From positions 1,575 to 65,574 of the forward strand of contig CAZQYX010000006.1 of NCBI GenBank assembly GCA_964597665.1: a stretch of DNA of 64,000 nt. Direction: 5' to 3'. The position numbers and the translations under genes were made by a program. The notes beneath the pieces were generated by a model that saw nothing but the letters and a program-made list of their open reading frames with translations, was not told where the DNA came from and searched no databases. Positions within the stretch are counted from its first letter, which is position 1; each line of letters opens with the position of its first letter. The DNA comes from an uncultured Candidatus Peribacteria bacterium (lineage in GTDB: Bacteria > Patescibacteriota > Gracilibacteria > Peribacterales > Peribacteraceae). This document shows positions 7,761-51,588 of the stretch, one piece after another.

Positions 7761-9385
7761 TCCCGGTCCTCTCTACCTTCCTGCTTGCGGCGTGCACGCA
7801 GGGAGACCGTAGCAGCTATTCCATAATCTCTGCGGTCATCGAGTCCCCTCTCGGAACTCCTGAACTACAAACAATTTTTCAGGGACTATTCGATGCATCA
7901 AAGCTTGTACAAACTGGTTCGACTCCGGAAATTCCTGTCCTGATTGTTCCGCATCACCTTACTGCTGCCGTCACGATTGCAGCAGGTGTCAGCTCGTTAC
8001 AAAGACAAAAACCGACATCGATTCTCCTCTTGTCTCCCGATCACTTCGACCAATGCAAAACTTTTCTGTGCGCAAGCAATCTTCGCTTCAAAACAGCACT
8101 CGGTGAAACGGAACCGGACAACGATATTCTCGATGTCCTGCATGCATCGCCGCTTGTGTCGGAGCAGAAGGAACTGTTTCAGCGTGAACACGGCATTCTG
8201 TCTGTTACGCCTTTCATTACAAAGCTGCTCCCGGGGACTCGCGTCACACCACTCGTCATCAGAATCCGTCCTGATTGGAAATCGCACCAGGAAGAACTTC
8301 TCGATGTGATTCGACGTGCAACGAAGCACGGTACCGTACTTCTTGTCAGCAGCGACTTCTCACACTATCTGCCGCTTTCAGAGGCCGATGCCGCTGATGA
8401 GAAAACTGCTCAGGTGCTTTTCTCAAGAGATTTCAGAGGTATTGCAAATCTGGAGAATCCTTCGCAGAGCGACTGCCCTGCCTGTCTCTGGATCGCTGCA
8501 AAGATTGCCTCTGAAAGCTCCGCTTACAATCCGTCAGTACTTCTGCACACAAATTCCGCTCGTCTACTCAACGATGAGAATGTTGCTTCCACAACAAGCC
8601 ACTTTGCCATTGCCTTCTACAAAAATGCAGAGCTCTCGTCGCAGAGTACTGCCTTTGCAGGAGATGTCACCATCACGCGTACGGGGAGCGGCAGGACTCC
8701 GATGCTCTCCAAAGCAATCCAAGATTTTTGGTCAGGAACAGGAGCACGATTCGTGAACCTCGAAGGACCGCTTGGAGAGGATTGCGTACCGGACAGCAAT
8801 CCGTACATCTTCTGCAATCCGATGCAGATCTGGATGAAGATACGAAATCTCGCGACGCACTGGAGTATCGAAAATAATCACAAACTTGATCAGGCCGAAG
8901 AAGGCTATGCGCTCACTCGTGCACACATCGACGATGCAAAAGAGAACGTTCTGAGTGACAATGCTTCGATCATCAACGGAATGCGAGTGTTTGCGCTCAC
9001 AAACATCATCAATCCTGTTGCCAAAGCATCGAAGGCGGCAATCGGTCTGCAGTACACAAAAGTCATTGCTGCATTGCAGACCGGAAGCGGCTCAGAGGTC
9101 CCGCAAGTGGTATTCGTTCATGCAGGAACCGAATTCAATGCACTCACTACAGTTAGCGAGAAGCGGTATCTTCGAAGCTTCGTCGATGCGGGAGCCGATG
9201 CAGTCATTGCTGTTCACAGTCACATACCGAGTGATATGGAAATGTACAGAGGGGCACCGATCTTCCATGGGCTTGGTAACTTTCTCTTCGACCAACACGA
9301 TGCAGTTGCGACATCGACTGCGAAGATTGTGAGGCTAGAGCAATCGGGAACAGGAGTGGTGTTTGAGACACTGACTGCGAGGTAA
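7721..9385 (+). CDS. Fusion lipoprotein: N-terminal Memo/AmmeMemoRadiSam-B-like domain plus C-terminal CapA (poly-gamma-glutamate synthesis, metallophosphatase-like) domain
   Basis: Lipobox LLAAC; Memo-like motifs LIVPHHLTAA, LLSPDHF, VSSDFSHYLP; CapA-like VFVHAGTEF...GADAVIAVHSHIPS...FHGLGNFLFDQ; 40-nt overlap with the upstream gene. Confidence 0.68.
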   Translation: MAKAKQLVRTALLVPVLSTFLLAACTQGDRSSYSIISAVIESPLGTPELQTIFQGLFDASKLVQTGSTPEIPVLIVPHHLTAAVTIAAGVSSLQRQKPTSILLLSPDHFDQCKTFLCASNLRFKTALGETEPDNDILDVLHASPLVSEQKELFQREHGILSVTPFITKLLPGTRVTPLVIRIRPDWKSHQEELLDVIRRATKHGTVLLVSSDFSHYLPLSEADAADEKTAQVLFSRDFRGIANLENPSQSDCPACLWIAAKIASESSAYNPSVLLHTNSARLLNDENVASTTSHFAIAFYKNAELSSQSTAFAGDVTITRTGSGRTPMLSKAIQDFWSGTGARFVNLEGPLGEDCVPDSNPYIFCNPMQIWMKIRNLATHWSIENNHKLDQAEEGYALTRAHIDDAKENVLSDNASIINGMRVFALTNIINPVAKASKAAIGLQYTKVIAALQTGSGSEVPQVVFVHAGTEFNALTTVSEKRYLRSFVDAGADAVIAVHSHIPSDMEMYRGAPIFHGLGNFLFDQHDAVATSTAKIVRLEQSGTGVVFETLTAR

Positions 9386-13210: not shown

Positions 13211-13287
13211 TGGTACGTAGGGTAGGTTTGGTAGGTAAAGTCCTGCCAAACCTTCCCAACCTACCGAACCTACCATACTTACCCAAC
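13211..13287. repeat. Family A composite hairpin (GGTAGGT-type arm / ACCTACC-type arm), copy A1
   Basis: TGGTACGTAGGGTAGGTTTGGTAGGTAAAG, loop, CCAAACCTTCCCAACCTACCGAACCTACCATACTTACCCAAC; lies between the groEL stop and the next ATG. Confidence 0.85.
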
Positions 13288-13486: not shown

Positions 13487-13560
13487 AAGGTTAGGTAGGT
13501 TGGGTAAGTAGGGTAGGTTACATACCAAACCTCCCCAACCTACCGTACCTACCCAACCTT
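13487..13560. repeat. Family A composite hairpin, copy A2
   Basis: AAGGTTAGGTAGGTTGGGTAAGTAGGGTAGGTTA, CAT, ACCAAACCTCCCCAACCTACCGTACCTACCCAACCTT; outer ends AAGGTT/AACCTT pair perfectly. Confidence 0.88.
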
Positions 13561-14309: not shown

Positions 14310-14888
14310 ATGCAAAAACCTATCGCAGTTGTTACCGGAGTCCTCATGCTCGTCGTCGCGGGAGTTGTTGTAAACCAGCGCTTTCAGATTGCAGGGGGCG
14401 GTCCGAGTACTTCACTCCGAGGAGACATGCTTGCTCCCGCTGTTGCAACCGCATCTACTTCTCCCGCATGCACAATAGGATGTCGTTCTCCCGACTCCTG
14501 TGATGCAACAACCGTAACGAGCAATACTTGTAGTACTGGAACTAGCTGCTGCCTTGCATGCACAGGTAGAGGCGGAACGTGCGGTGATTCTCAGCAATGT
14601 TGCTCGAGAACATGTTTATCTGCTCTTACAGTCTGTGAATGTAGTACTTTTGGAGAATATTGTGCTACTAGCGCTGATTGCTGCAGTGGTAATTGCAATG
14701 CCAATACAAAAACGTGTGCTAATACATCTCTCTGCCTCCCGCACGATGCTCCTAACTGCAATGCTCCCGATGCAAAGACCTGTTGTGATGCTGCGAATGG
14801 TTGGAGTTGCAAATTTAGGACGCGCTACGCTTCGGGCGTGTCGTATAGGGAATATGCTTGTAAAGGATCTCCTCCAGTCTGGCCCTAA
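14310..14888 (+). CDS. Secreted or membrane-anchored cysteine-rich protein (24 Cys) with tandem knottin-like C-C-CC-C-C modules
   Basis: Start trimmed to MQKPIAVVTGVLMLVVAGVVV (hydrophobic N-terminus); two modules of identical spacing C-x6-C-x5-CC-x3-C-x6-C at aa 84-109 and 111-136; canonical terminator downstream. Confidence 0.7.
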   Translation: MQKPIAVVTGVLMLVVAGVVVNQRFQIAGGGPSTSLRGDMLAPAVATASTSPACTIGCRSPDSCDATTVTSNTCSTGTSCCLACTGRGGTCGDSQQCCSRTCLSALTVCECSTFGEYCATSADCCSGNCNANTKTCANTSLCLPHDAPNCNAPDAKTCCDAANGWSCKFRTRYASGVSYREYACKGSPPVWP

Positions 14889-14954: not shown

Positions 14955-14980
14955 AAACCACCCACCCGGGTGGTTTTTTT
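14955..14980 (+). terminator. Rho-independent terminator after the Cys-rich gene
   Basis: AAACCACCC ACCC GGGTGGTTT followed by TTTTTT. Confidence 0.7.
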
Positions 14981-15010: not shown

Positions 15011-15358
15011 ATGTCACCCGTTCAAATCATCTCCAAAGCTGTCAATCGCGATGTCCTAAGAGCAGTCGCAAAAGAACGTTTTGGCGATATGGTGAAAGCT
15101 GTCGTAGACATTAAGCAGGGAGTCATGGCAATCGGTGGTGAATTACATGCCGATGAGGAACAAATGCTTCTGGAACAGGGATCAAGGCAGGAAGATCTTT
15201 GGGGCATTAACCTCTATCCTGATATCCAAAATGCTGACTGGCTAGAATTCGACTCCATGATCAATCTTCGACCATCCCAGGGAAATCGTTCACGTGGAGT
15301 GGAAGATCCTGAGTTGCAGAAGCGCATCCGTTCCACAGTTTCCTCTCTTATTCTGTGA
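15011..15358 (+). CDS. DUF5674-like conserved hypothetical protein
   Basis: ERFGDMVKAVVDIKQGVMAIGGELHADEEQMLLEQGSRQEDLWGINLYPD matches my recollection of the DUF5674 family; start trimmed to ATG 15011, downstream of the terminator. Confidence 0.65.
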   Translation: MSPVQIISKAVNRDVLRAVAKERFGDMVKAVVDIKQGVMAIGGELHADEEQMLLEQGSRQEDLWGINLYPDIQNADWLEFDSMINLRPSQGNRSRGVEDPELQKRIRSTVSSLIL

Positions 15359-24812: not shown

Positions 24813-25898
24813 CTATTTCATCCTCTGATCCAATGCATCAAAGCTGAAACAGTGCAGCCCCGCAGGATGATTCCAGAAGATGTCGTAGCCTAGATCGCGA
24901 GTGAGTGCGAATGTTGCACAAAGTTCAAATGCATTTGCGCTCGTGCTGTACGCATAGGGCAAAGAAGTCTCCGGATCATTGACGCGAAGTTTCTCGTACT
25001 GCGCCCCGGCTGCAACCTCCTGAAGATCTTTCGGAATCGGCTTCGGAAGAACTTTGACACCCGCAGGAACGGGAACTCCCCTTTCCTGACCGTAGACCTG
25101 ATTATAAATTTCATTCTGAATCGCTCGCAAATCACTGATGCGTTGCTCGTCAAATCTTTCCGCACGTCCCTGCATAGGACTGCCGACGATGATGATACCA
25201 ACCAGAACAAAGAGTGCTGTAAGGATGATAGATGCCCAGAGGTACCTTGCATGTATGGAACTCGTCTTGTACTGATCATGCTCGATGCGGAGAACCGAAA
25301 AGTAATACCCGAAAGGCAAGCCGCTGAGGACAAGCACTGCCAAAACCTTCAAAATGAATCTCAGTGTCAATTCACCGCTCAGTAATGTGAAGAGAAGCGT
25401 AATGCCGTCACCGATCAGTGCGCACGCAGTGACGAACAGCGTCAAATAGGTCAGCCAGCGACGAACGCCTGAATTCAGCTTCTCTGGCTTGCTCAAAAAT
25501 TCTCTATGCAGAACGCGGGAAAGAAACAGAAACATCGGAAAAGAAATAACGATGACTGCGATGGACCAACGGATGGTGGAAAAATCGCTGCTGTTTGCGT
25601 ACGCATAGTCCATCATCGCTGCGTCAGGGAACCAGCGACCGATATAGGTGAAGGCGAGCAGTACGAGGCTGATCACCGTCGCATACAGAGTCGTGAACGC
25701 AAGCAAGTGGAAGAAGGCATCTCTCGCGGAGCCCGTGTCGGATGGAAGAGGAATCGTCATCGTCAGCGTTTCGGACGCGAGAGCAGAAGCGATATCTTTC
25801 TCTTTCCAGCCTGCGGAGAGAAGCAGCATCCGAATCGTCTGGTGATCCATGTTCTTGCCCCGCGCATGGGCAATGAAAGCGTGCAGTGAGCTGGCCAT
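24813..25898 (-). CDS. DUF5671-like polytopic membrane protein
   Basis: Start trimmed to MASSLHAFIAHARGKNMDHQTIRMLLLSAGW; 4-5 TM region resembling DUF5671 proteins, plus an extracytoplasmic C-terminal domain; family recalled from memory. Confidence 0.62.
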   Translation of the reverse strand: MASSLHAFIAHARGKNMDHQTIRMLLLSAGWKEKDIASALASETLTMTIPLPSDTGSARDAFFHLLAFTTLYATVISLVLLAFTYIGRWFPDAAMMDYAYANSSDFSTIRWSIAVIVISFPMFLFLSRVLHREFLSKPEKLNSGVRRWLTYLTLFVTACALIGDGITLLFTLLSGELTLRFILKVLAVLVLSGLPFGYYFSVLRIEHDQYKTSSIHARYLWASIILTALFVLVGIIIVGSPMQGRAERFDEQRISDLRAIQNEIYNQVYGQERGVPVPAGVKVLPKPIPKDLQEVAAGAQYEKLRVNDPETSLPYAYSTSANAFELCATFALTRDLGYDIFWNHPAGLHCFSFDALDQRMK

Positions 25899-25972
25899 AA
25901 CGATAGAATGGAAGATATAAACGTAAGACGTATGTATCTGCCACAGTCTTACATGCCCTATCATACATCTCT

Positions 25973-27067
25973 TTGCGGATCCTTGTTGCCATGTCCGGCG
26001 GAGTCGACTCCAGTGTTGTTGCACACCTGCTGAAAGAGCAGGGGCATGAGCTGATCGGCGTGCGGTTTTCGCTCTGGACCGATCCACTCGCGCCAGCACT
26101 CGCGCAGGTACTCCCGAGCAAGTGCTGCACGACGCAAAATATTGCCCGCGCTTCAACGGTTGCAAAGAAACTTGGGATGCCGCTGCATGTCATCAATCTT
26201 GAGGATGAATTCAAGAGTCTGGTTGTTGATCCGTTTTTGGAAGCGCATACAAAAGGCCTCACGCCAAACCCGTGCATCGGATGCAACCGGACAATCAAGT
26301 TCGGGAAGCTTCTTCATTGTATGAAAGAACTCGGGTGTGAGAAATTGGCGACGGGACATTATGCAAGGACAGCAACCGAACGAATGCCGGATGGAACAGA
26401 GCGTTGTATCTTGCTCGAGGCCGTCGACACAAGAAAAGATCAGAGTTACTACCTCTATGGGCTCTCGCAGGAACAACTCGCTTCGGTGATTTTTCCCCTT
26501 GGGGCAATGCGAAAAGATGAGGTGTACGGGCTTGCAACGCACTTCGATCTGCCGATTGCAGAGAGCTATAGAGAAAGCCAAGATCTTTGTTTTTTCCCTG
26601 AGAAGACTCCGCAGGAATTTTTAAAGCGACATCTTCAGCAATGGATGAAATCCGGATCGATCGTACGACGTGACGGTACCATCGTCGGAACTCACAAGGG
26701 GCTTCCTCTCTATACAGTTGGTCAGAGACGAGGACTCGGCATCGGAGGCCTGAAAATTCCTCTCGAAGTTATTTCGAAGAATACGCAGCGAAACGAATTG
26801 GTCGTCTCAGAGAAGGGCGAGGAACTCTGTGACGAAGTAAAACTTTCCGATCTTCGGTTCGTTTCCTGGAAACCAAAACAGAGAACGTTGGTCCCTTTCG
26901 AGTGTAGAACGCGGTCGCTATCGCTCAAACAAAAGGGTCTCCTCGTACTCAATGGTGAAAGTGCAACATTCAAGTTTACTAGTCCAGCTCCAATGCAAGC
27001 TGCAGGGCAATCGCTTGTACTCTACCGCGGCGAGGAAGTAGTCGGTGGTGGCGTGATGGAAAATTGA
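25973..27067 (+). CDS. mnmA: tRNA 2-thiouridine(34) synthase
   Basis: MRILVAMSGGVDSSV PP-loop, NPCIGCN, about 360 aa. Confidence 0.95.
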   Translation: MRILVAMSGGVDSSVVAHLLKEQGHELIGVRFSLWTDPLAPALAQVLPSKCCTTQNIARASTVAKKLGMPLHVINLEDEFKSLVVDPFLEAHTKGLTPNPCIGCNRTIKFGKLLHCMKELGCEKLATGHYARTATERMPDGTERCILLEAVDTRKDQSYYLYGLSQEQLASVIFPLGAMRKDEVYGLATHFDLPIAESYRESQDLCFFPEKTPQEFLKRHLQQWMKSGSIVRRDGTIVGTHKGLPLYTVGQRRGLGIGGLKIPLEVISKNTQRNELVVSEKGEELCDEVKLSDLRFVSWKPKQRTLVPFECRTRSLSLKQKGLLVLNGESATFKFTSPAPMQAAGQSLVLYRGEEVVGGGVMEN

Positions 27068-27095: not shown

Positions 27096-28379
27096 ATGGT
27101 ACAATATGAGACCATTTATTCTCTAATGCGATCTGCTCACTACGACATATTCGGCAATATCATTCTCGACATCGTGGAAGAGAAGATGGTGCAGAATGAA
27201 GAAACTATCTCTGTTGGCATTTCTGACAGAACGACGTGCTTGCAAAAGCAGGGAGATGCATCGTCATGGACTCTCGTTCACGACTCGCCGCGAACAAGCG
27301 AAAGAAAATCTGCTCCGCACGAGCGATTGCATGAGAAGCAGAAGAGTTCGGGGGTCATCAAGAATTTTGGGGAACGCACGAAGCTGGCCATTTCTTCTTT
27401 GCCCGCCGAGAGTGCATCCCAATTCCATGCAACCGCCGGGGAAGTACAATCGCTGATTTCAAGTCTGCGTTCATCCCCTCAAAGAATTCACTCTGCACTA
27501 AGGAGCTTCCTACGGAAGGCAAATACTCCGCTATCCATGCAATCGCTCCTCCCAAAGAGCAAGAAACCCCCTACAAGGCTTCGGCTCTTTCTTGTCGATA
27601 CTGTTCGCTTCGGCGGAACATTCGCCGGTATTTTCATCATTCTCTTTATGGGAATCAACGCCCAGAGCTTCTTCCAGATTGCGAAGGCAGAACTGGCTCT
27701 CGGAGACGATCTGAATACACAGCAAGCGTTGGAAGAGATGGTCACCGGAGTGTCCGGAAGAAGCGAGATGATCGCCACAGACACGATGCGCGAGCAAAGC
27801 GAGTCGGATGTTCTCTCGCTCCTACCGTCCGTCGGTCCTTTCGAGAACAGACTTATTATCCCGAAGCTCGGCAAGAACATACCCATCGTTCGACCGAGCA
27901 TGGACGGACTGATGCAGGAAAACTGGAAGAAGTTTGAGGATGACATTCAATCTGCACTGAAAGGAGGAGTCGTCCATTACCCCGGTTCCGCAAGACCGGG
28001 ACAAGCCGGGAATTTCTTCGTGACCGGTCACAGTTCCTACTACCCGTGGGATGACGGAAGTTACAAAGATGTCTTTGCGAGACTGAAGGACTTACTACCC
28101 GGCGACACGTACTCCGTGTACTACGGAGGCGACAAGCACACCTATCGAATCACTTCAAAGAAAGAAGTGAAACCCAGCGATGTCTCGGTGCTGGACCAGC
28201 CGACTGATCAACGCATTGCAACACTGATGACCTGCACACCGATCGGGACAACGCTCCGTCGCCTGATCGTGATGGCGGAAGAAATTGACCCAACGACCGG
28301 TGAAATACTGACTGTGGGCGAGAAGGCAAAGAAAGATGAGACGACACCGAGGGTGAGGCTGGAGTCGTTGCCAATCTGA
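27096..28379 (+). CDS. Sortase-family transpeptidase with about 165-aa N-terminal cytoplasmic extension and one TM
   Basis: GNFFVTGHSSYY (His), ATLMTCTP (TLxTC Cys), TLRRLIV (Arg); TM FGGTFAGIFIILFMGI. Confidence 0.75.
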   Translation: MVQYETIYSLMRSAHYDIFGNIILDIVEEKMVQNEETISVGISDRTTCLQKQGDASSWTLVHDSPRTSERKSAPHERLHEKQKSSGVIKNFGERTKLAISSLPAESASQFHATAGEVQSLISSLRSSPQRIHSALRSFLRKANTPLSMQSLLPKSKKPPTRLRLFLVDTVRFGGTFAGIFIILFMGINAQSFFQIAKAELALGDDLNTQQALEEMVTGVSGRSEMIATDTMREQSESDVLSLLPSVGPFENRLIIPKLGKNIPIVRPSMDGLMQENWKKFEDDIQSALKGGVVHYPGSARPGQAGNFFVTGHSSYYPWDDGSYKDVFARLKDLLPGDTYSVYYGGDKHTYRITSKKEVKPSDVSVLDQPTDQRIATLMTCTPIGTTLRRLIVMAEEIDPTTGEILTVGEKAKKDETTPRVRLESLPI

Positions 28380-32153: not shown

Positions 32154-34280
32154 ATGCGCCCTTTTGGATTCCTCGTCGGCTCGTCAATCGGACTATTCGC
32201 AATCCTCTTCTCAACGATTGTATTCGCTCAGGCCGATCAGGCCCAGACGCGGAGTGTCATCCGCATTGAAGCAGGCAACATACTGGAGATCGGTACCGAT
32301 ACTGTCTCGGCCAAACCCGATTTCAGCTGGATTCTGACGAAAGAACGGAAATTCCAGAATGCGCAGCGCTCGCGCTTCTTCAAGACCCGTTTTGCTCAGA
32401 CCGGAGTGTACTCCTTGGATATCAGTGTCCAGGAAAGCGAATCTTCTCAGAATGAGTACAACGCTTTTGAGATCATCGTCACGGATCCGATTGGCGGTGA
32501 TCCACCGATTGCTTCAGGAGGCCCCCTGAAGGCAATCCTGAAAACATCCCCCACGACGATCAACGGAACAGTCTACCTACCACCGGAAGGCGGCATTCTC
32601 TCTCTCGACGGCTCCGCATCGACAAGCAAAATTGTGCAGTACGCATTGGATCTCGATAGCGGAGTCGATACGGATTCCGACGGCGACCCGACGAATGATT
32701 TCGAGAATCTCGGGACCTATTCATCGGAAACAGGATCGCCGCTTCTGTACTTTGTGACGGAGAAAGGAAGGGAGCGAAACATAACGCTCACGGTGACAGA
32801 TACCATCACGGGGAAAACCGATGCGACTTCCGTACGTGTCATCTTTGGAATTGCTCCTGCAGACACGGGAATTCCGCAGACAAACGATGCCTCGAGTCCA
32901 ATCAGCGTCCAGCTCTCCGATGCAACTGCAACATTCTCGGTGCGTCTGCCCGAGGCGCAGACACTCGGAAAGGAGCTTCTGTACGAATGGAATTTCGGTG
33001 ATGGAAGCAGAAGCCTGCTTACAAGTCCCGTACACACCTTTGCAAATGCCGGAGGGTACGCAGTCAGCCTCATTGTCCGCGATATTACGAACGGTCAGAT
33101 CGTGTACCAAGGCTCCAATGGTCTGCAGATTGAAACGACAGGGATACAGTCATCGGCATCCTCAAGCAGTCAGGCTTCTGAGCAAATCAAGCCTGCCGAA
33201 AGCAGCGATTCCGGATCCGGAATCTGGAGCTTGCTTCGCGTGGGACTCATTGTGATTCTCCTGCTGTCATTTGCCATCGGACTGTACGCCCTCTTTATGT
33301 GGATCAAGCGGAAGACAGCCGGAAAGCTGGTGGAAACATTCGAGAGCATGGAGAAAACAATCGTGAAAGGCGAGAAAGCATCGGAGGCCAAACCGGAACC
33401 GCTCAAAATCAAGAAAGAAAGTACAGTGTCAGAAAAACAGTCACAGACTCCTGAAAGCATTTCAGAGCGTGAGAAGTCCAAGACGGAATTTTCCGGCACC
33501 AGTCGGAATAATACAGTTCCTCTCAGTACATCGGGCCCTGTCCCAAGCTGGTTGCAGAAAACAACAGCTCCTGTACCAGCTGCCGCTCCTATGGCTGCAT
33601 CTTCTTCTACGCCTACAGTAGGAGCAAAGGCATCTCACATAGCAGCACCTGAGAAGGCACCGGAGGTTCCAAAAAATACGTCAGCTCCGGTACCCGACTG
33701 GCTGAAGCAAGCGCCGCAGAAGAAGGAAGTAAACACAAATCTACCGACACCCACACCGAAGCCCCCTGAAACCAAAACAGAACCGGCGATCAAGCCACCT
33801 GTCTCTCTGCCGCCTTCGCCTATCCAAACTCCGGAGACGACGAAGCCATCTGCTCCGATGCCGCAATCTGCACCGACGAGTGCTCCAAAGCCAGCTCCTG
33901 CACTGCCGAAACCAGAAATGAGCAGTACTCAAAATCCAGTGATCACAGTACCGGCAGTAATCAAAGAGATTCCAAAACCTGAAAAAGTAAGCGCACCTGC
34001 TCCGTCTGCATCCACGCCAAAAGGAGTAGAGGAAAAACCAAAGGAGAAGCTGATTCTTTCTCCTGTAAAAACTGAGACAAACCAAGCAGCAGAGAAACCA
34101 AAACAAGTTGCGGAACCGGAGAAGAAGCCGGTCGCTCCTCAGGCTCCAGCGAAACCGGTTCCTCAGAATATAGAGAAGCAGGAAAAACCCGCAGCAAAGC
34201 TCTCGCCAAAACCGAAGACGAATGGAGAGAACGAAGCACCGATTGCTATCATCAAAGCGGATAGTCTGACGCAGGAATGA
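32154..34280 (+). CDS. Large surface protein: PKD domain(s), central TM, C-terminal Pro/Ala/Lys-rich low-complexity region
   Basis: YEWNFGDGSRSLLTSPVHTFANAGGYAVSLIVRD PKD signature; TM IWSLLRVGLIVILLLSFAIGLYALFMWI; about 300 aa of P/A/K/E-rich tail; starts 2 nt after the pilin-like gene. Confidence 0.72.
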   Translation: MRPFGFLVGSSIGLFAILFSTIVFAQADQAQTRSVIRIEAGNILEIGTDTVSAKPDFSWILTKERKFQNAQRSRFFKTRFAQTGVYSLDISVQESESSQNEYNAFEIIVTDPIGGDPPIASGGPLKAILKTSPTTINGTVYLPPEGGILSLDGSASTSKIVQYALDLDSGVDTDSDGDPTNDFENLGTYSSETGSPLLYFVTEKGRERNITLTVTDTITGKTDATSVRVIFGIAPADTGIPQTNDASSPISVQLSDATATFSVRLPEAQTLGKELLYEWNFGDGSRSLLTSPVHTFANAGGYAVSLIVRDITNGQIVYQGSNGLQIETTGIQSSASSSSQASEQIKPAESSDSGSGIWSLLRVGLIVILLLSFAIGLYALFMWIKRKTAGKLVETFESMEKTIVKGEKASEAKPEPLKIKKESTVSEKQSQTPESISEREKSKTEFSGTSRNNTVPLSTSGPVPSWLQKTTAPVPAAAPMAASSSTPTVGAKASHIAAPEKAPEVPKNTSAPVPDWLKQAPQKKEVNTNLPTPTPKPPETKTEPAIKPPVSLPPSPIQTPETTKPSAPMPQSAPTSAPKPAPALPKPEMSSTQNPVITVPAVIKEIPKPEKVSAPAPSASTPKGVEEKPKEKLILSPVKTETNQAAEKPKQVAEPEKKPVAPQAPAKPVPQNIEKQEKPAAKLSPKPKTNGENEAPIAIIKADSLTQE

Positions 34281-39071: not shown

Positions 39072-39073
39072 CA

Positions 39074-39144
39074 GAAGTATGTAGTAAGAAGTAAAAAGTA
39101 AGAATAGAATTGTCTTACTACGTACTACTTACTTCGTACTACTT
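39074..39144. repeat. Family C composite hairpin (GTAGTAAGAAG-type arm / CTTCTTACTAC-type arm), copy C1
   Basis: GAAGTATGTAGTAAGAAGTAAAAAGTAAGAA, TAGAATTG, TCTTACTACGTACTACTTACTTCGTACTACTT; begins 3 nt after the greA stop and ends 3 nt before ATG 39148. Confidence 0.85.
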
Positions 39145-40532: not shown

Positions 40533-40546
40533 CCGGGAGAAACCAC

Positions 40547-40590
40547 TGTACCTTCCAAACCTACCACACCTACCAAACCTACCGTACCTT
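40547..40590. repeat. Family A half-site (ACCTACC-type arm only, no partner arm)
   Basis: TGTACCTTCCAAACCTACCACACCTACCAAACCTACCGTACCTT in the divergent spacer between holA and the dockerin gene. Confidence 0.75.
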
Positions 40591-41042: not shown

Positions 41043-42335
41043 ATGCTTTCCATTCGACGCTCCATAGTGCTCTCGCTCATGGGATTCCAGCTCCTCTCCT
41101 TTTCGATGACTGGATTCGCACAGGAGGCAGATCCTATCAGTCTCGCACTGGAACCGCACTGTAGTAGCGAAGACCAAACCGAGTGCCCCGCTTTCGAAGT
41201 TCTTGATGCACAGCATCTGGCAACGGGAAGCATGCGTGCAGGCGATATTCTGGATATCGACATCGTCCTTCTTCATGGCAAAGGCAAAGGAATTACAACC
41301 GTCCGCAGTTGGCTCTCCTACGATCCGGAAAGCCTGGACGTCCGAAACGTCAGCCTCAGTCCAGTTCTCGCGGAGCCTATTCCGGGAGAACAATCCGCCG
41401 ATCCAACGCAGAAAATCGTGAAAATCGGAGGAGATACCGGAGAAATCCGAAGTGACCATGAAGTGATTGCCCGTATCACATTCCAAGTGAAGGCTTCTGC
41501 AGAGAATACGATTATTTCCTTCAGTAACTACAGAGACGACGGAATGGGGCAGACAGCAGTGCGTGGAGAATCCCGCCTCAATGACAAAAAGGGTGGGCTG
41601 CCCCCTCCCCCCTGTCTCGATGAGCTTATCTGCAGGAGAGAGATCGTATCGCTTCTTTCAGTCGAACCGAGCGCTCTGGCAGTACTCGTAGAACCGACAA
41701 CGCAGTCAGTCCCTGATCCTCTCGTTGCATCGGCACAAACCATTGAACAGGTTGAACCGATTGTCATTCCCCTTCTCGGAAGTACGGATCCTGCGCCATC
41801 ACAGCCTGAAGCAATCCCCGGAAACAGTCCGTCTTCCTTCTCACTGCTGCAGGTCCAGAACCTGCGCGTCACATCCAGAGACAGCAGCATTTTCCTCGGA
41901 TGGCAGCCCCTGAAAAGCAGTGCACTCGCCGGATACAACGTCTACTACGGCACCGTCAGCGGCAAGTACATCCAACGCCGTTCCATTCCCGCAACTGCTT
42001 CCAGCCTCGTGATTCGCGATCTGGAACCGGGAACAACATACTTCATCGCAGTGCGCGGCTATAATGCCGAGAATCAGGAGTCCGTGTTCAGTCAGGAAGT
42101 GTCTGTCACCGTCGGCGATCCTGAAAGCTCCACAGCTCCGCTGATTGCGGAACTCACGGAAACCCAGCCAGCCCCCGAGAATCTCATCGAAAATCGCGGA
42201 GGAAAGGCGATCAACGGAGACACGGGTGTCAGCAATGTCGTGATGATGCTGTTCCTCGGATCTGCATTCATCGGCACTGCGTTTGCCGTCCATAAACAAA
42301 CGACTCTCATTCACTCGATTGCTCATGTCGGATAA
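41043..42335 (+). CDS. Surface protein: cohesin-like domain, linker, fibronectin type III domain, C-terminal hydrophobic anchor
   Basis: Signal peptide; AGDILDIDIVLL...VRSWLSYDPESLDVRNVSL...EVIARITFQVKASAENTIISF resembles a cohesin fold; FN3 NLRVTSRDSSIFLGWQP...GYNVYYG...LEPGTTYFIAVRGYN; C-terminal NGDTG plus TM plus HK. Confidence 0.62.
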   Translation: MLSIRRSIVLSLMGFQLLSFSMTGFAQEADPISLALEPHCSSEDQTECPAFEVLDAQHLATGSMRAGDILDIDIVLLHGKGKGITTVRSWLSYDPESLDVRNVSLSPVLAEPIPGEQSADPTQKIVKIGGDTGEIRSDHEVIARITFQVKASAENTIISFSNYRDDGMGQTAVRGESRLNDKKGGLPPPPCLDELICRREIVSLLSVEPSALAVLVEPTTQSVPDPLVASAQTIEQVEPIVIPLLGSTDPAPSQPEAIPGNSPSSFSLLQVQNLRVTSRDSSIFLGWQPLKSSALAGYNVYYGTVSGKYIQRRSIPATASSLVIRDLEPGTTYFIAVRGYNAENQESVFSQEVSVTVGDPESSTAPLIAELTETQPAPENLIENRGGKAINGDTGVSNVVMMLFLGSAFIGTAFAVHKQTTLIHSIAHVG

Positions 42336-44747: not shown

Positions 44748-44845
44748 GTAGGTTGGGTAGGTTCGGTAGGTGAAAATGCGATCAATCCCAGATTCAGTTC
44801 ATTTTACCTACCAAACATACCAAACCTTCCAAACCTACCCTACCT
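44748..44845. repeat. Family A composite hairpin, copy A5
   Basis: GTAGGTTGGGTAGGTTCGGTAGGTGAAAATG ... CATTTTACCTACCAAACATACCAAACCTTCCAAACCTACCCTACC; central 14 bp perfect (GGTAGGTGAAAATG/CATTTTCACCTACC-type pairing); ends 1 nt before the permease stop. Confidence 0.82.
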
Positions 44846-46063: not shown

Positions 46064-46184
46064 GAGGTATGGAAGGTTTGGTAGGTTGGGTAGGAGGTGT
46101 CGAAATGATGATTACTTGGTGCAGTATACGTTTCTTGTCCATACCTCCCCTACATACCAAACGTACCAAACCTACCCAACCTTC
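46064..46184. repeat. Family A composite hairpin with about 40-nt loop, copy A6, between the two permease cistrons
   Basis: GAGGTATGGAAGGTTTGGTAGGTTGGGTAGGAGGTGT ... ATACCTCCCCTACATACCAAACGTACCAAACCTACCCAACCTTC. Confidence 0.8.
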
Positions 46185-47413: not shown

Positions 47414-47510
47414 AGAAGTAAGTAGTATGTAGTAAGAAGTAAGAATAATAGGGGAAAACTTTGATGAGTTGCAGCAACATTCGTACTACTTGCTTCTTAC
47501 TACTTACTTC
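47414..47510. repeat. Family C composite hairpin, copy C2, between the ABC ATPase and the first permease
   Basis: GAGAAGTAAGTAGTATGTAGTAAGAAGTAAGAA ... TTCGTACTACTTGCTTCTTACTACTTACTTC; shares the 19-mer AGTATGTAGTAAGAAGTAA with C1; the right arm covers the ATPase stop codon. Confidence 0.82.
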
Positions 47511-51528: not shown

Positions 51529-51588
51529 GTTGGGTAGGTTTGGTAGGTGGGGTAGGTAAAACTTACCAAACCTACCCTACCTACCACA
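51529..51588. repeat. Family A composite hairpin with minimal loop, copy A7
   Basis: GTTGGGTAGGTTTGGTAGGTGGGGTAGGTAAAA CTTACCAAACCTACCCTACCTACCACAC; the ORF-track N-terminus of ftsK (MVGGVGKTYQTYPTYH) is a translation of it. Confidence 0.85.

Follow-up and report, generated by a model that had tools for sequence, protein, structure and literature searches.

The cysteine-rich gene and its locus

We examined a 64,000-nucleotide stretch of contig CAZQYX010000006.1 (the window, to whose positions coordinates refer unless another locus is named), which comes from an uncultured, small-genome and groundwater-type Candidatus Peribacteria bacterium of the Candidate Phyla Radiation (CPR). Our subject is a gene at 14310-14888 of the forward strand, whose product has 24 cysteines and carries two tandem modules with the spacing of inhibitor cystine knot (ICK) peptides, or knottins; as judged from sequence comparison and modelling, the protein probably folds, and probably works, like ICK knottins. 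The window is an ordinary chromosomal stretch with groES/groEL, tmk, folD, mgtE, typA, purF/purD, prfA, mnmA and a sortase gene, and the neighbors of the cysteine-rich gene are housekeeping genes (groES/groEL, tmk, a DUF5674 gene, folD and mgtE). The gene is monocistronic and has no functional partner nearby, in agreement with an earlier reading of the DNA alone (the original prediction), which had also given it a terminator of its own; a terminator scan places that hairpin and its T-run ahead of the next gene, encoding a DUF5674 protein, whose start is at 15011. The features of the locus, in amino acids (aa) where applicable, are as follows.

14310..14888, (+): coding sequence of 192 aa plus stop, with an ATG start, from translation of the window
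14310..14375, (+): N-terminal hydrophobic segment (aa 1-22, MQKPIAVVTGVLMLVVAGVVVN), a putative Sec signal-anchor or signal peptide
14376..14468, (+): low-complexity Ala/Ser/Thr/Gly/Pro linker (aa 23-53), from the translation
14469..14552, (+): Cys block 1 (aa 54-81), spacing C-x3-C-x5-C-x9-C-x5-CC, a non-ICK framework
14559..14636, (+): module 2 (aa 84-109), CTGRGGTCGDSQQCCSRTCLSALTVC, loops 6-5-0-3-6
14640..14717, (+): module 3 (aa 111-136), CSTFGEYCATSADCCSGNCNANTKTC, loops 6-5-0-3-6
14733..14861, (+): module 4 (aa 142-184), C-x7-C-x7-CC-x7-C-x16-C, loops 7-7-0-7-16
14955..14976, (+): intrinsic terminator-like hairpin with a 9 bp stem (5 G-C pairs), then the T-run TTTTTATT, from the terminator scan

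A gene caller begins the gene at an in-frame TTG (14259) upstream of the ATG at 14310, which gives 209 aa. The ATG is the likely start, since a 207-aa paralogue in a related genome (open reading frame [ORF] at 8001 of locus L005, described below) can start only at the equivalent MQKP; the 17-residue extension that the TTG would add is acidic and would thus fit poorly to an anchor whose N terminus stays inside the cell. No Shine-Dalgarno sequence (GGAGG) was visible in the 25 nt upstream of 14 confident window genes, nor before the cysteine-rich gene, and a promoter scan found no sigma-70-like promoter upstream of it. Several window ORFs are headed by TTG or GTG in a first-start ORF listing, and translation in this genome may initiate without a Shine-Dalgarno lead.

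The conserved N-terminal anchor, the synteny with a relative and the terminator downstream show the gene to be real. The alternative is an ORF that arose by chance in an intergenic gap of 830 nt and codes for no protein, and it could draw on the codon-usage log-odds, by which the reading frame of the gene is no better than an alternative frame, and on the missing Shine-Dalgarno sequence, though the same holds for other window genes. Codon usage is uninformative for this gene because its amino-acid composition is extreme. The ORF, 192-209 codons long, lies outside the shadow of any other gene, its first 40 aa are kept in three paralogues at the syntenic site in another genome, where Tmk identity is only 76%, its Cys spacing is non-random, and a terminator follows directly; a chance ORF is scarcely credible. 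Four other assemblies hold the gene in 100% identical DNA and therefore offer no variation and no signal in the ratio of nonsynonymous to synonymous substitutions (dN/dS).

Cysteine framework

Translation gives the layout first described for this protein: a hydrophobic N terminus, an Ala/Ser/Thr linker and 24 Cys, at aa 54, 58, 64, 74, 80 and 81; 84, 91, 97, 98, 102 and 109; 111, 118, 124, 125, 129 and 136; and 142, 150, 158, 159, 167 and 184. The protein is thus made of four units of six Cys, because the first six (aa 54-81) form a separate, different block, in which C54, C58 and C64 line up with Cys of the paralogues. A regular expression for C-x6-C-x5-CC-x3-C-x6-C has exactly two matches in the protein, aa 84-109 and 111-136, which are the two modules of identical spacing originally proposed; one Glu separates them. 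The looser further module that had been proposed is at aa 142-184 (module 4 here), where the C-C-CC-C-C order of modules 2 and 3 recurs with a long last loop.

Shuffling of aa 54-184 produced two non-overlapping six-Cys blocks of identical spacing in 109 of 200,000 trials (p ~5e-4), and 100 shuffles of the window yielded no match to a DNA version of the module motif. Cys accounts for 12.5% of the protein versus 1.1% for the 47 main window ORFs, and no other window ORF or frame was found to carry such a Cys framework. The C-C-CC-C-C order of the modules comes with loops in the range of known knottins, as the KNOTTIN database defines them (PMC2238874), and the ring size of modules 2 and 3 (a=6, d=3) would be compatible with a cystine knot.

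Similarity to known knottins

Outside the family itself, the nearest sequences among 1.84 billion representatives are two mosquito proteins (Anopheles A0A2M4CIE0, E 2e-7; Uranotaenia XP_055597338, E 1e-4), in a match that sums six repeats of 3-20 bits each, all on module 3, and that is the best picked out of 1.8 billion sequences. Because it is built from six low-scoring repeats, the match is suggestive and no proof of homology. Each mosquito protein has six modules with loops 6-5-0-3-6 and matches Pfam Conotoxin; their cluster includes a member named "phenoloxidase inhibitor-like", and the KNOTTIN database lists the phenoloxidase-inhibitor family among predicted knottins (PMC2238874).

Of the two window modules, module 3 best matches insect and bacterial ICK-like modules. 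Against a hidden Markov model (HMM) of the mosquito modules it scores 28.8 bits, a value reached by none of 1000 shuffles in which the Cys were held fixed (6.2 +/- 4.0 bits), and module 2 scores 14.1 bits, reached by 34 of 1000. Profile-profile comparison with the mosquito modules (hhalign) gave a 97% probability, and a joint profile of window and mosquito modules matches the solved knottin Dg12a (6px7) at 1.4e-8. The loops of Dg12a are 6-5-0-3-6, identical to those of modules 2 and 3, so the spacing is that of a solved knottin, as had been proposed. A profile made from the two window modules alone found ten weak matches among PDB sequences (E 0.1-10), all of them ICK toxins; the protein itself, searched against the PDB with phmmer, returned only a hydrophobin (E 0.9), and word-indexed homologue searches returned only the protein itself, the paralogue P0004 (see below) and two insect exon fragments.

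The likeness to Dg12a and the dipteran phenoloxidase-inhibitor-like proteins extends from the Cys framework and loop lengths to a Gly before Cys II, an acidic residue before the CC pair and a Ser after it. The mosquito proteins are likewise tandem module arrays behind a signal peptide, but their linkers are 40-60 aa long and end in an NRFG-type motif that resembles a processing site, whereas the linker between the window modules is one residue. In contrast to the dipteran proteins, the window protein has an anchor that looks uncleaved, and it carries two more Cys blocks that are not identical. Dg12a and the dipteran proteins are eukaryotic, and their likeness to the window protein is significant only when summed over repeats. 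Recent horizontal transfer from insects was considered and rejected, as the GC content of the gene (0.48-0.49) is near that of the window (0.505) and the framework recurs in paralogues of the lineage. The C-C-CC-C-C framework is also common to the conotoxin O and I2 superfamilies and baculovirus Ctl (PF02950, PF17557), although conotoxins are toxins that consist of one module and are processed from a propeptide, and the window protein reaches no Pfam conotoxin model. Hevein and granulin domains were set aside, as no Pfam domain of any kind was detected in the protein; their Cys frameworks would also differ.

Predicted structure

We modelled a fragment (aa 81-140) with AlphaFold2 (AF2) from an alignment of insect (mosquito) ICK-like sequences. 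In the best of the five models, module 3 has a predicted local distance difference test (pLDDT) score of 75-78. A Foldseek search of the PDB with this model gave 13 matches, all knottins and all with E > 1, of which the best five have root-mean-square deviations of 0.8-2.3 A and target-normalised template-modelling scores of 0.6-0.8. The matches include nemertide alpha-1, Dg12a, hainantoxin-I, scytotoxin and atracotoxins, and also SOTI-III, conotoxins, SGTx1 and engineered cystine-knot peptides. By the KNOTTIN database definition (PMC2238874), the cystine-stabilised beta-sheet core of a knottin lies within an RMSD of 2.5 A of a reference knottin. The top five BFVD matches are baculovirus conotoxin-like (Ctl) proteins, which superpose to 0.5 A over 27-28 residues (probability 0.98-1.0). 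The module 3 model fits the ICK fold, and it depends on the insect ICK-like alignment. Structure prediction, which had been suggested as a check, therefore bears out the prediction in part: the only superpositions of module 3 are with ICK peptides and baculovirus Ctl, at moderate confidence and in one model of five. The parallel check by HMM and structure searches was likewise divided, with knottins as the only Foldseek PDB matches and no match to a Pfam conotoxin or knottin model. In module 4 a weak beta-hairpin is predicted (pLDDT ~51-55).

Export segment and paralogues

Residues 5-21 are strongly hydrophobic (Kyte-Doolittle ~1.8), and with this putative export or anchor segment the protein looks membrane-anchored or secreted, as the original prediction had it. 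A scan of GTDB species genomes found a sole relative with the conserved N terminus, the Candidatus Peribacteria metagenome-assembled genome (MAG) nzgw390 (locus L005), whose GroEL is 93%, Tmk 76% and a 63-aa protein 68% identical to those of the window; this relationship agrees with the small-genome (CPR) host that had been supposed. The gene order in nzgw390 is groES-groEL-63aa-tmk, then three small coiled-coil genes and three tandem paralogues of the cysteine-rich gene.

Paralogue 1: 160 aa, 5 Cys
Paralogue 2 (L005_207): 207 aa, 23 Cys, with a long poly-Pro linker
Paralogue 3 (P0004): 120 aa, 6 Cys, in syntenic context

In these paralogues only the part equivalent to aa 1-40 of the window protein is conserved (46-53% identity; family pattern MQKP[IV]A[IV]VTGV.ML..AG...Q...S..L[KR]GD). 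The search for relatives in other MAGs, another suggested check, gave these three proteins of nzgw390, which share the anchor and have Cys-rich parts that cannot be aligned with that of the window protein. A C-C-CC-C-C unit nevertheless recurs, with loops 7-5-0-13-21 in P0004 and 10-4-0-5-5 in L005_207. An exhaustive phmmer search of the 1.84 billion representatives gave P0004 as the only N-terminal match, and nothing was found by N-terminus-based scans of JGI metagenomes and IMG/VR or by tblastn against plasmids and phages.

The site after tmk is a variable hotspot, because the window genome has a single gene there and nzgw390 several. In nzgw390 it runs from tmk to the contig end (L005 6317-9135) and holds the three coiled-coil paralogues (MKK.AKASGKITLR...) and then the three anchor-plus-variable-domain paralogues; the coiled-coil proteins have weak phage-family matches (phrog_9415, 9e-8). 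About 15 residues past the hydrophobic helix stands a motif L-[KR]-G-[DE]-[MVL] (14412-14429, aa 35-40), which is kept in all four family members as SLRGDM (the window protein, with a literal RGD), HLKGDV, SLKGDL and NLRGEM, and which could be a processing or recognition site.

These N-terminal features bear on a rival reading, in which the protein is a secreted toxin or inhibitor precursor with a cleaved signal and a pro-region, its Cys modules being released whole or cut apart to inhibit an enzyme or a channel in a host, a competitor or a grazer. A conserved N terminus joined to Cys-rich parts that are hypervariable among paralogues resembles conotoxin genes, with their conserved signal and hypervariable mature peptide, and in both sequence and fold the protein comes nearest to inhibitors and toxins (phenoloxidase-inhibitor-like proteins, Dg12a and baculovirus Ctl). 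The L-[KR]-G-[DE] motif could serve as the processing site of such a precursor, and a possible (-3,-1) cleavage site, IAG↓G, can be read at aa 27-29. However, IAG↓G is absent from the equivalent place in the paralogues (QFGMGGG, QLGINFS), and the clear signal peptides of the window genome end in xFA↓Q/A, unlike this N terminus. There is also no room for processing between modules 2 and 3, because a single residue separates them, and no dedicated exporter or immunity gene was found near the gene. A precursor of this kind seems unlikely.

Several other assignments were tried and rejected. A lipoprotein would need a lipobox, which is lacking, and the first Cys comes only at aa 54; the G↓F-T-L-I-E motif of type IV pilins is likewise lacking. 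For a ribosomally synthesized and post-translationally modified peptide (RiPP) precursor of the lanthipeptide, sactipeptide or ranthipeptide type, the would-be core of ~140 aa is not short, and the 44 larger window ORFs include no LanB/C/M/KC or radical SAM protein.

Tandem modules in other bacteria

The motif C-x3-G-x2-C-x5-CC-S-x2-C-x6-C was turned into a DNA pattern, which within the window matches modules 2 and 3 only, and the JGI metagenome collection was scanned with it. The scan gave at least 120 matching stretches; most among the matches listed are TG simple repeats. Long Cys-rich ORFs were present at 13 loci examined among the matches listed, and at least 11 of these are multi-module proteins.

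L054: six or more tandem modules, adjoins thiG/thiH
L064: lipoprotein signal, ~10 modules
L066: lipoprotein signal, 541 aa
L084: Sec signal, on a 286-kb contig
L083: multi-module
L106: lipoprotein signal
L022, L055 and L058: twin-arginine (Tat) signals
L047: adjoins L,D-transpeptidases
L014: multi-module

Sampled neighbor genes are bacterial at L047, L054, L064, L066 and L084. The proteins have 2-10 tandem modules and lie mostly on high-GC contigs (GC 0.64-0.72). Among modules that the pattern had not selected, 20 of 48 have loops 6-5-0-3-4 and nine of 48 have loops 6-5-0-3-6, and the consensus is C-x3-G-x2-C-x5-CC-S-x2-C-x4-6-C (CAPNGAACTTDADCCSGSCSGGTC). Two of the proteins, L054 (31.1 bits) and L064 (35.9 bits), pass the gathering score of Pfam Conotoxin_I2 (27), and none of the at least 11 is covered by an NCBIfam model. 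Tat signals are odd on disulfide-rich proteins.

Both window modules fit the metagenome consensus, in tandem and behind a putative export signal. Against an HMM built from 32 metagenome modules, module 3 scores 22.1 bits, a value reached by 4 of 1000 Cys-fixed shuffles. The metagenome proteins (L054, L064, L066, L083, L084 and L106 are examples) have the module consensus, tandem order and N-terminal export signals in common with the window protein; they differ from it in having lipoprotein, Tat or cleavable Sec signals, up to ~10 modules and a last loop of mostly 4 residues, and the window protein is set apart by its anchor type, small size, mixed module types and CPR host. They are not among the matches of the exhaustive search with the window protein, and no direct full-length comparison was made.

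The 6-5-0-3-n framework is thus not unique to the window gene, because at least 11 bacterial proteins with Sec, Tat or lipoprotein signals carry tandem modules of this kind, which appear to be an uncurated class of knottin-like repeats in bacteria. According to the KNOTTIN 2018 paper, bacteria have knottin sequences, and no experimental structure exists for "bacterial knottins"; in the literature searched, the phrase is found there only (PMC5753296). Together with these predicted bacterial knottins, the tandem-module proteins from metagenomes make it an overstatement to call such frameworks unusual in bacteria. On the sequence comparisons made here, the window protein lies outside every curated family, and its nearest architectural kin are these uncurated bacterial tandem-module proteins.

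A protein with 12.5% Cys might instead be a thiol-rich, metallothionein-like metal binder that sequesters Cu, Zn, Cd or Fe-S, and the Tat signals of some metagenome proteins with the same module, the route of cofactor-loaded proteins, would suit such a role. We think this very improbable. The window protein has only one C-x-C and one C-x2-C motif, its spacing is regular and ICK-like and not clustered, an N-terminal export or anchor segment is present, no Pfam metallothionein model matches, and metallothioneins do not typically have such a content of aromatic residues and long loops.

Proposed function and alternatives

We consider the chances about even that the protein is an exported, disulfide-knotted, surface-displayed binding array of this Peribacteria bacterium. 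The N-terminal hydrophobic helix would insert through Sec and either stay as an anchor with its N terminus inside and its C terminus outside the cell or be cleaved, and the flexible Ala/Ser/Thr/Pro linker would keep four six-Cys mini-domains at a distance from the membrane. The C-C-CC-C-C order is present in three of the four, two of them with exact ICK/knottin 6-5-0-3-6 loops. Outside the cell, three disulfides would lock each unit, most likely in the knottin arrangement, and the result would be a rigid, protease-resistant array of small binding surfaces that may be used in contacts with other cells, be it the host of an episymbiont or the host's enzymes. Export, disulfide bonding, the knot topology (I-IV/II-V/III-VI, with the III-VI bridge passing through the ring) and the binding role are all what we infer here. 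A surface-displayed binding or adhesion module appears the most likely role because the anchor is conserved, the Cys part is hypervariable, and the copy number after tmk is 1 in the window genome and 3 in nzgw390; the protein could alternatively be an inhibitor module that blocks an external enzyme.

Such a role would be in keeping with what is reported for the lineage. Peribacteria have many extracellular, Cys-rich, strain-variable proteins that are thought to serve attachment, and they encode a disulfide-formation protein (PMC4736985). In Candidatus Peribacter riflensis, large extracellular Cys-rich proteins (average 1,655 aa, ~7% Cys) are encoded in a 14-gene cluster and weakly resemble the Cys-rich repeats of Myxococcus (Anantharaman et al. 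2016, PMC4736985). They come from the same bacterial class as the window protein, and they would have in common with it an extracellular or membrane-associated location, a Cys-rich composition, strain variability and a proposed attachment role. The window protein differs in its length (192 aa), its 12.5% Cys and its ICK-type spacing, and it matches no TIGR/NCBIfam repeat. Membership in the large Cys-rich protein family of Peribacteria, or in the Myxococcus cysteine-rich repeat family, was rejected on its short length and on the lack of any NCBIfam/TIGRFAM or Pfam repeat match.

A number of results weigh against a knotted binding array, beyond the make-up of the mosquito match, the coding statistics, the identical assemblies and the alignment dependence of the module 3 model that were given above. 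No model in Pfam, NCBIfam or PHROGs recognises the protein, and neither Pfam Conotoxin (PF02950) nor Conotoxin_I2 (PF17557) matches at E <= 10 with the whole protein or with its 109-aa Cys-rich part. When Gly5 and Ser16 are held fixed along with the Cys, 64 of 1000 shuffles reach the 22.1 bits of module 3 against the metagenome-module HMM, which is marginal, and module 2 scores 13.6 bits against the same HMM, which is not significant. A full-length AF2 model from two sequences was unusable (pLDDT 42), the fragment reached a mean pLDDT of 64 in one of five models (37-47 in the other four), module 2 has a pLDDT of ~55 even in the best of them, and every Foldseek match has an E-value above 0.08. 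Neither a Dsb nor a VKOR gene was found in the window.

Several of these observations would suit a protein that is disulfide-rich but non-knotted, in which C-C-CC-C-C is a convergent look-alike within a lineage-specific extracellular Cys-rich protein of Peribacteria. Many six-Cys frameworks adopt other connectivity or another fold; no Pfam conotoxin or knottin model matches; similarity is weak beyond the Cys, Gly5 and Ser16; model confidence is low for module 2 and the remainder of the protein; block 1 is non-ICK; and Peribacteria are known for Cys-rich surface proteins (PMC4736985). We nevertheless hold a non-knotted protein to be doubtful, as loops a=6 and d=3 and the adjacent Cys III and IV are exactly as in the solved ICK Dg12a (6px7), every PDB profile match and every Foldseek PDB match is an ICK, the leading BFVD matches are baculovirus Ctl, and the same module occurs in bacterial proteins that pass Pfam Conotoxin_I2.

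Other features of the window

Further genes of the window are hisS, gyrB, greA, holA, a MacB-type ABC system, ftsK, an AddA-like helicase gene, rpoD and dnaG; an Rfam scan of the window found tRNAs only. Its other surface genes encode a sortase with a 250-aa N-terminal extension (27096-28379), a 708-aa Cys-free PKD-domain protein with a signal peptide (32154-34280) and a secreted protein with cohesin and fibronectin-III domains (41043-42335). In spite of the sortase gene, the cysteine-rich protein was rejected as an obvious sortase substrate because it is without an LPXTG motif, and it also lacks a C-terminal anchor. The longest ORF of a DUF5671 protein (24813-26165, reverse strand) and the 5' end of the divergent mnmA (25973-27067, forward strand) overlap by ~190 nt; the true start of the DUF5671 ORF is probably further downstream, and the DUF5671 domain begins at aa 149.

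Intergenic arrays of 9-nt units (AACCTACCN, complement GGTAGGTTN) are found at 13218-13287, 13488-13559, 40540-40589, 44748-44845, 46155-46182 and 51529-51557. Those at 13218-13287 at least are facing inverted arrays, with the potential for a long hairpin between genes. A second type has 7-nt units (AGAAGTA/TACTACG) and occurs at 39073-39144 and 47414-47510. Both types look like lineage-specific elements, resembling either repetitive extragenic palindromic (REP) sequences or terminators, and spurious "LPNLPNLPYLPN" ORFs are translated intergenic arrays.

Implications

Knottins are prized as ultra-stable binding scaffolds and are experimentally known in animals, plants, fungi and viruses. It is possible, if short of likely, that the ICK is an unrecognised and widespread extracytoplasmic repeat unit of bacteria, which in Peribacteria has become a membrane-anchored, hypervariable and copy-number-variable module of host contact. 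If this is true, the knottin fold either predates the toxin and inhibitor radiations of eukaryotes or arose repeatedly, and the proteins described here would be the first family of knottins in bacteria for which a cell-surface role could be tested. The more general lead may be the class found in metagenomes, with its 2-10 tandem modules and no dedicated Pfam or NCBIfam model. For the biology of CPR bacteria, the window protein would offer a small, expressible candidate for partner recognition. Were a symbiotic bacterium with a small genome to carry a membrane-anchored tandem array, the knottin fold would gain a new architecture and a new setting, that of cell-surface contact instead of venom or defence.

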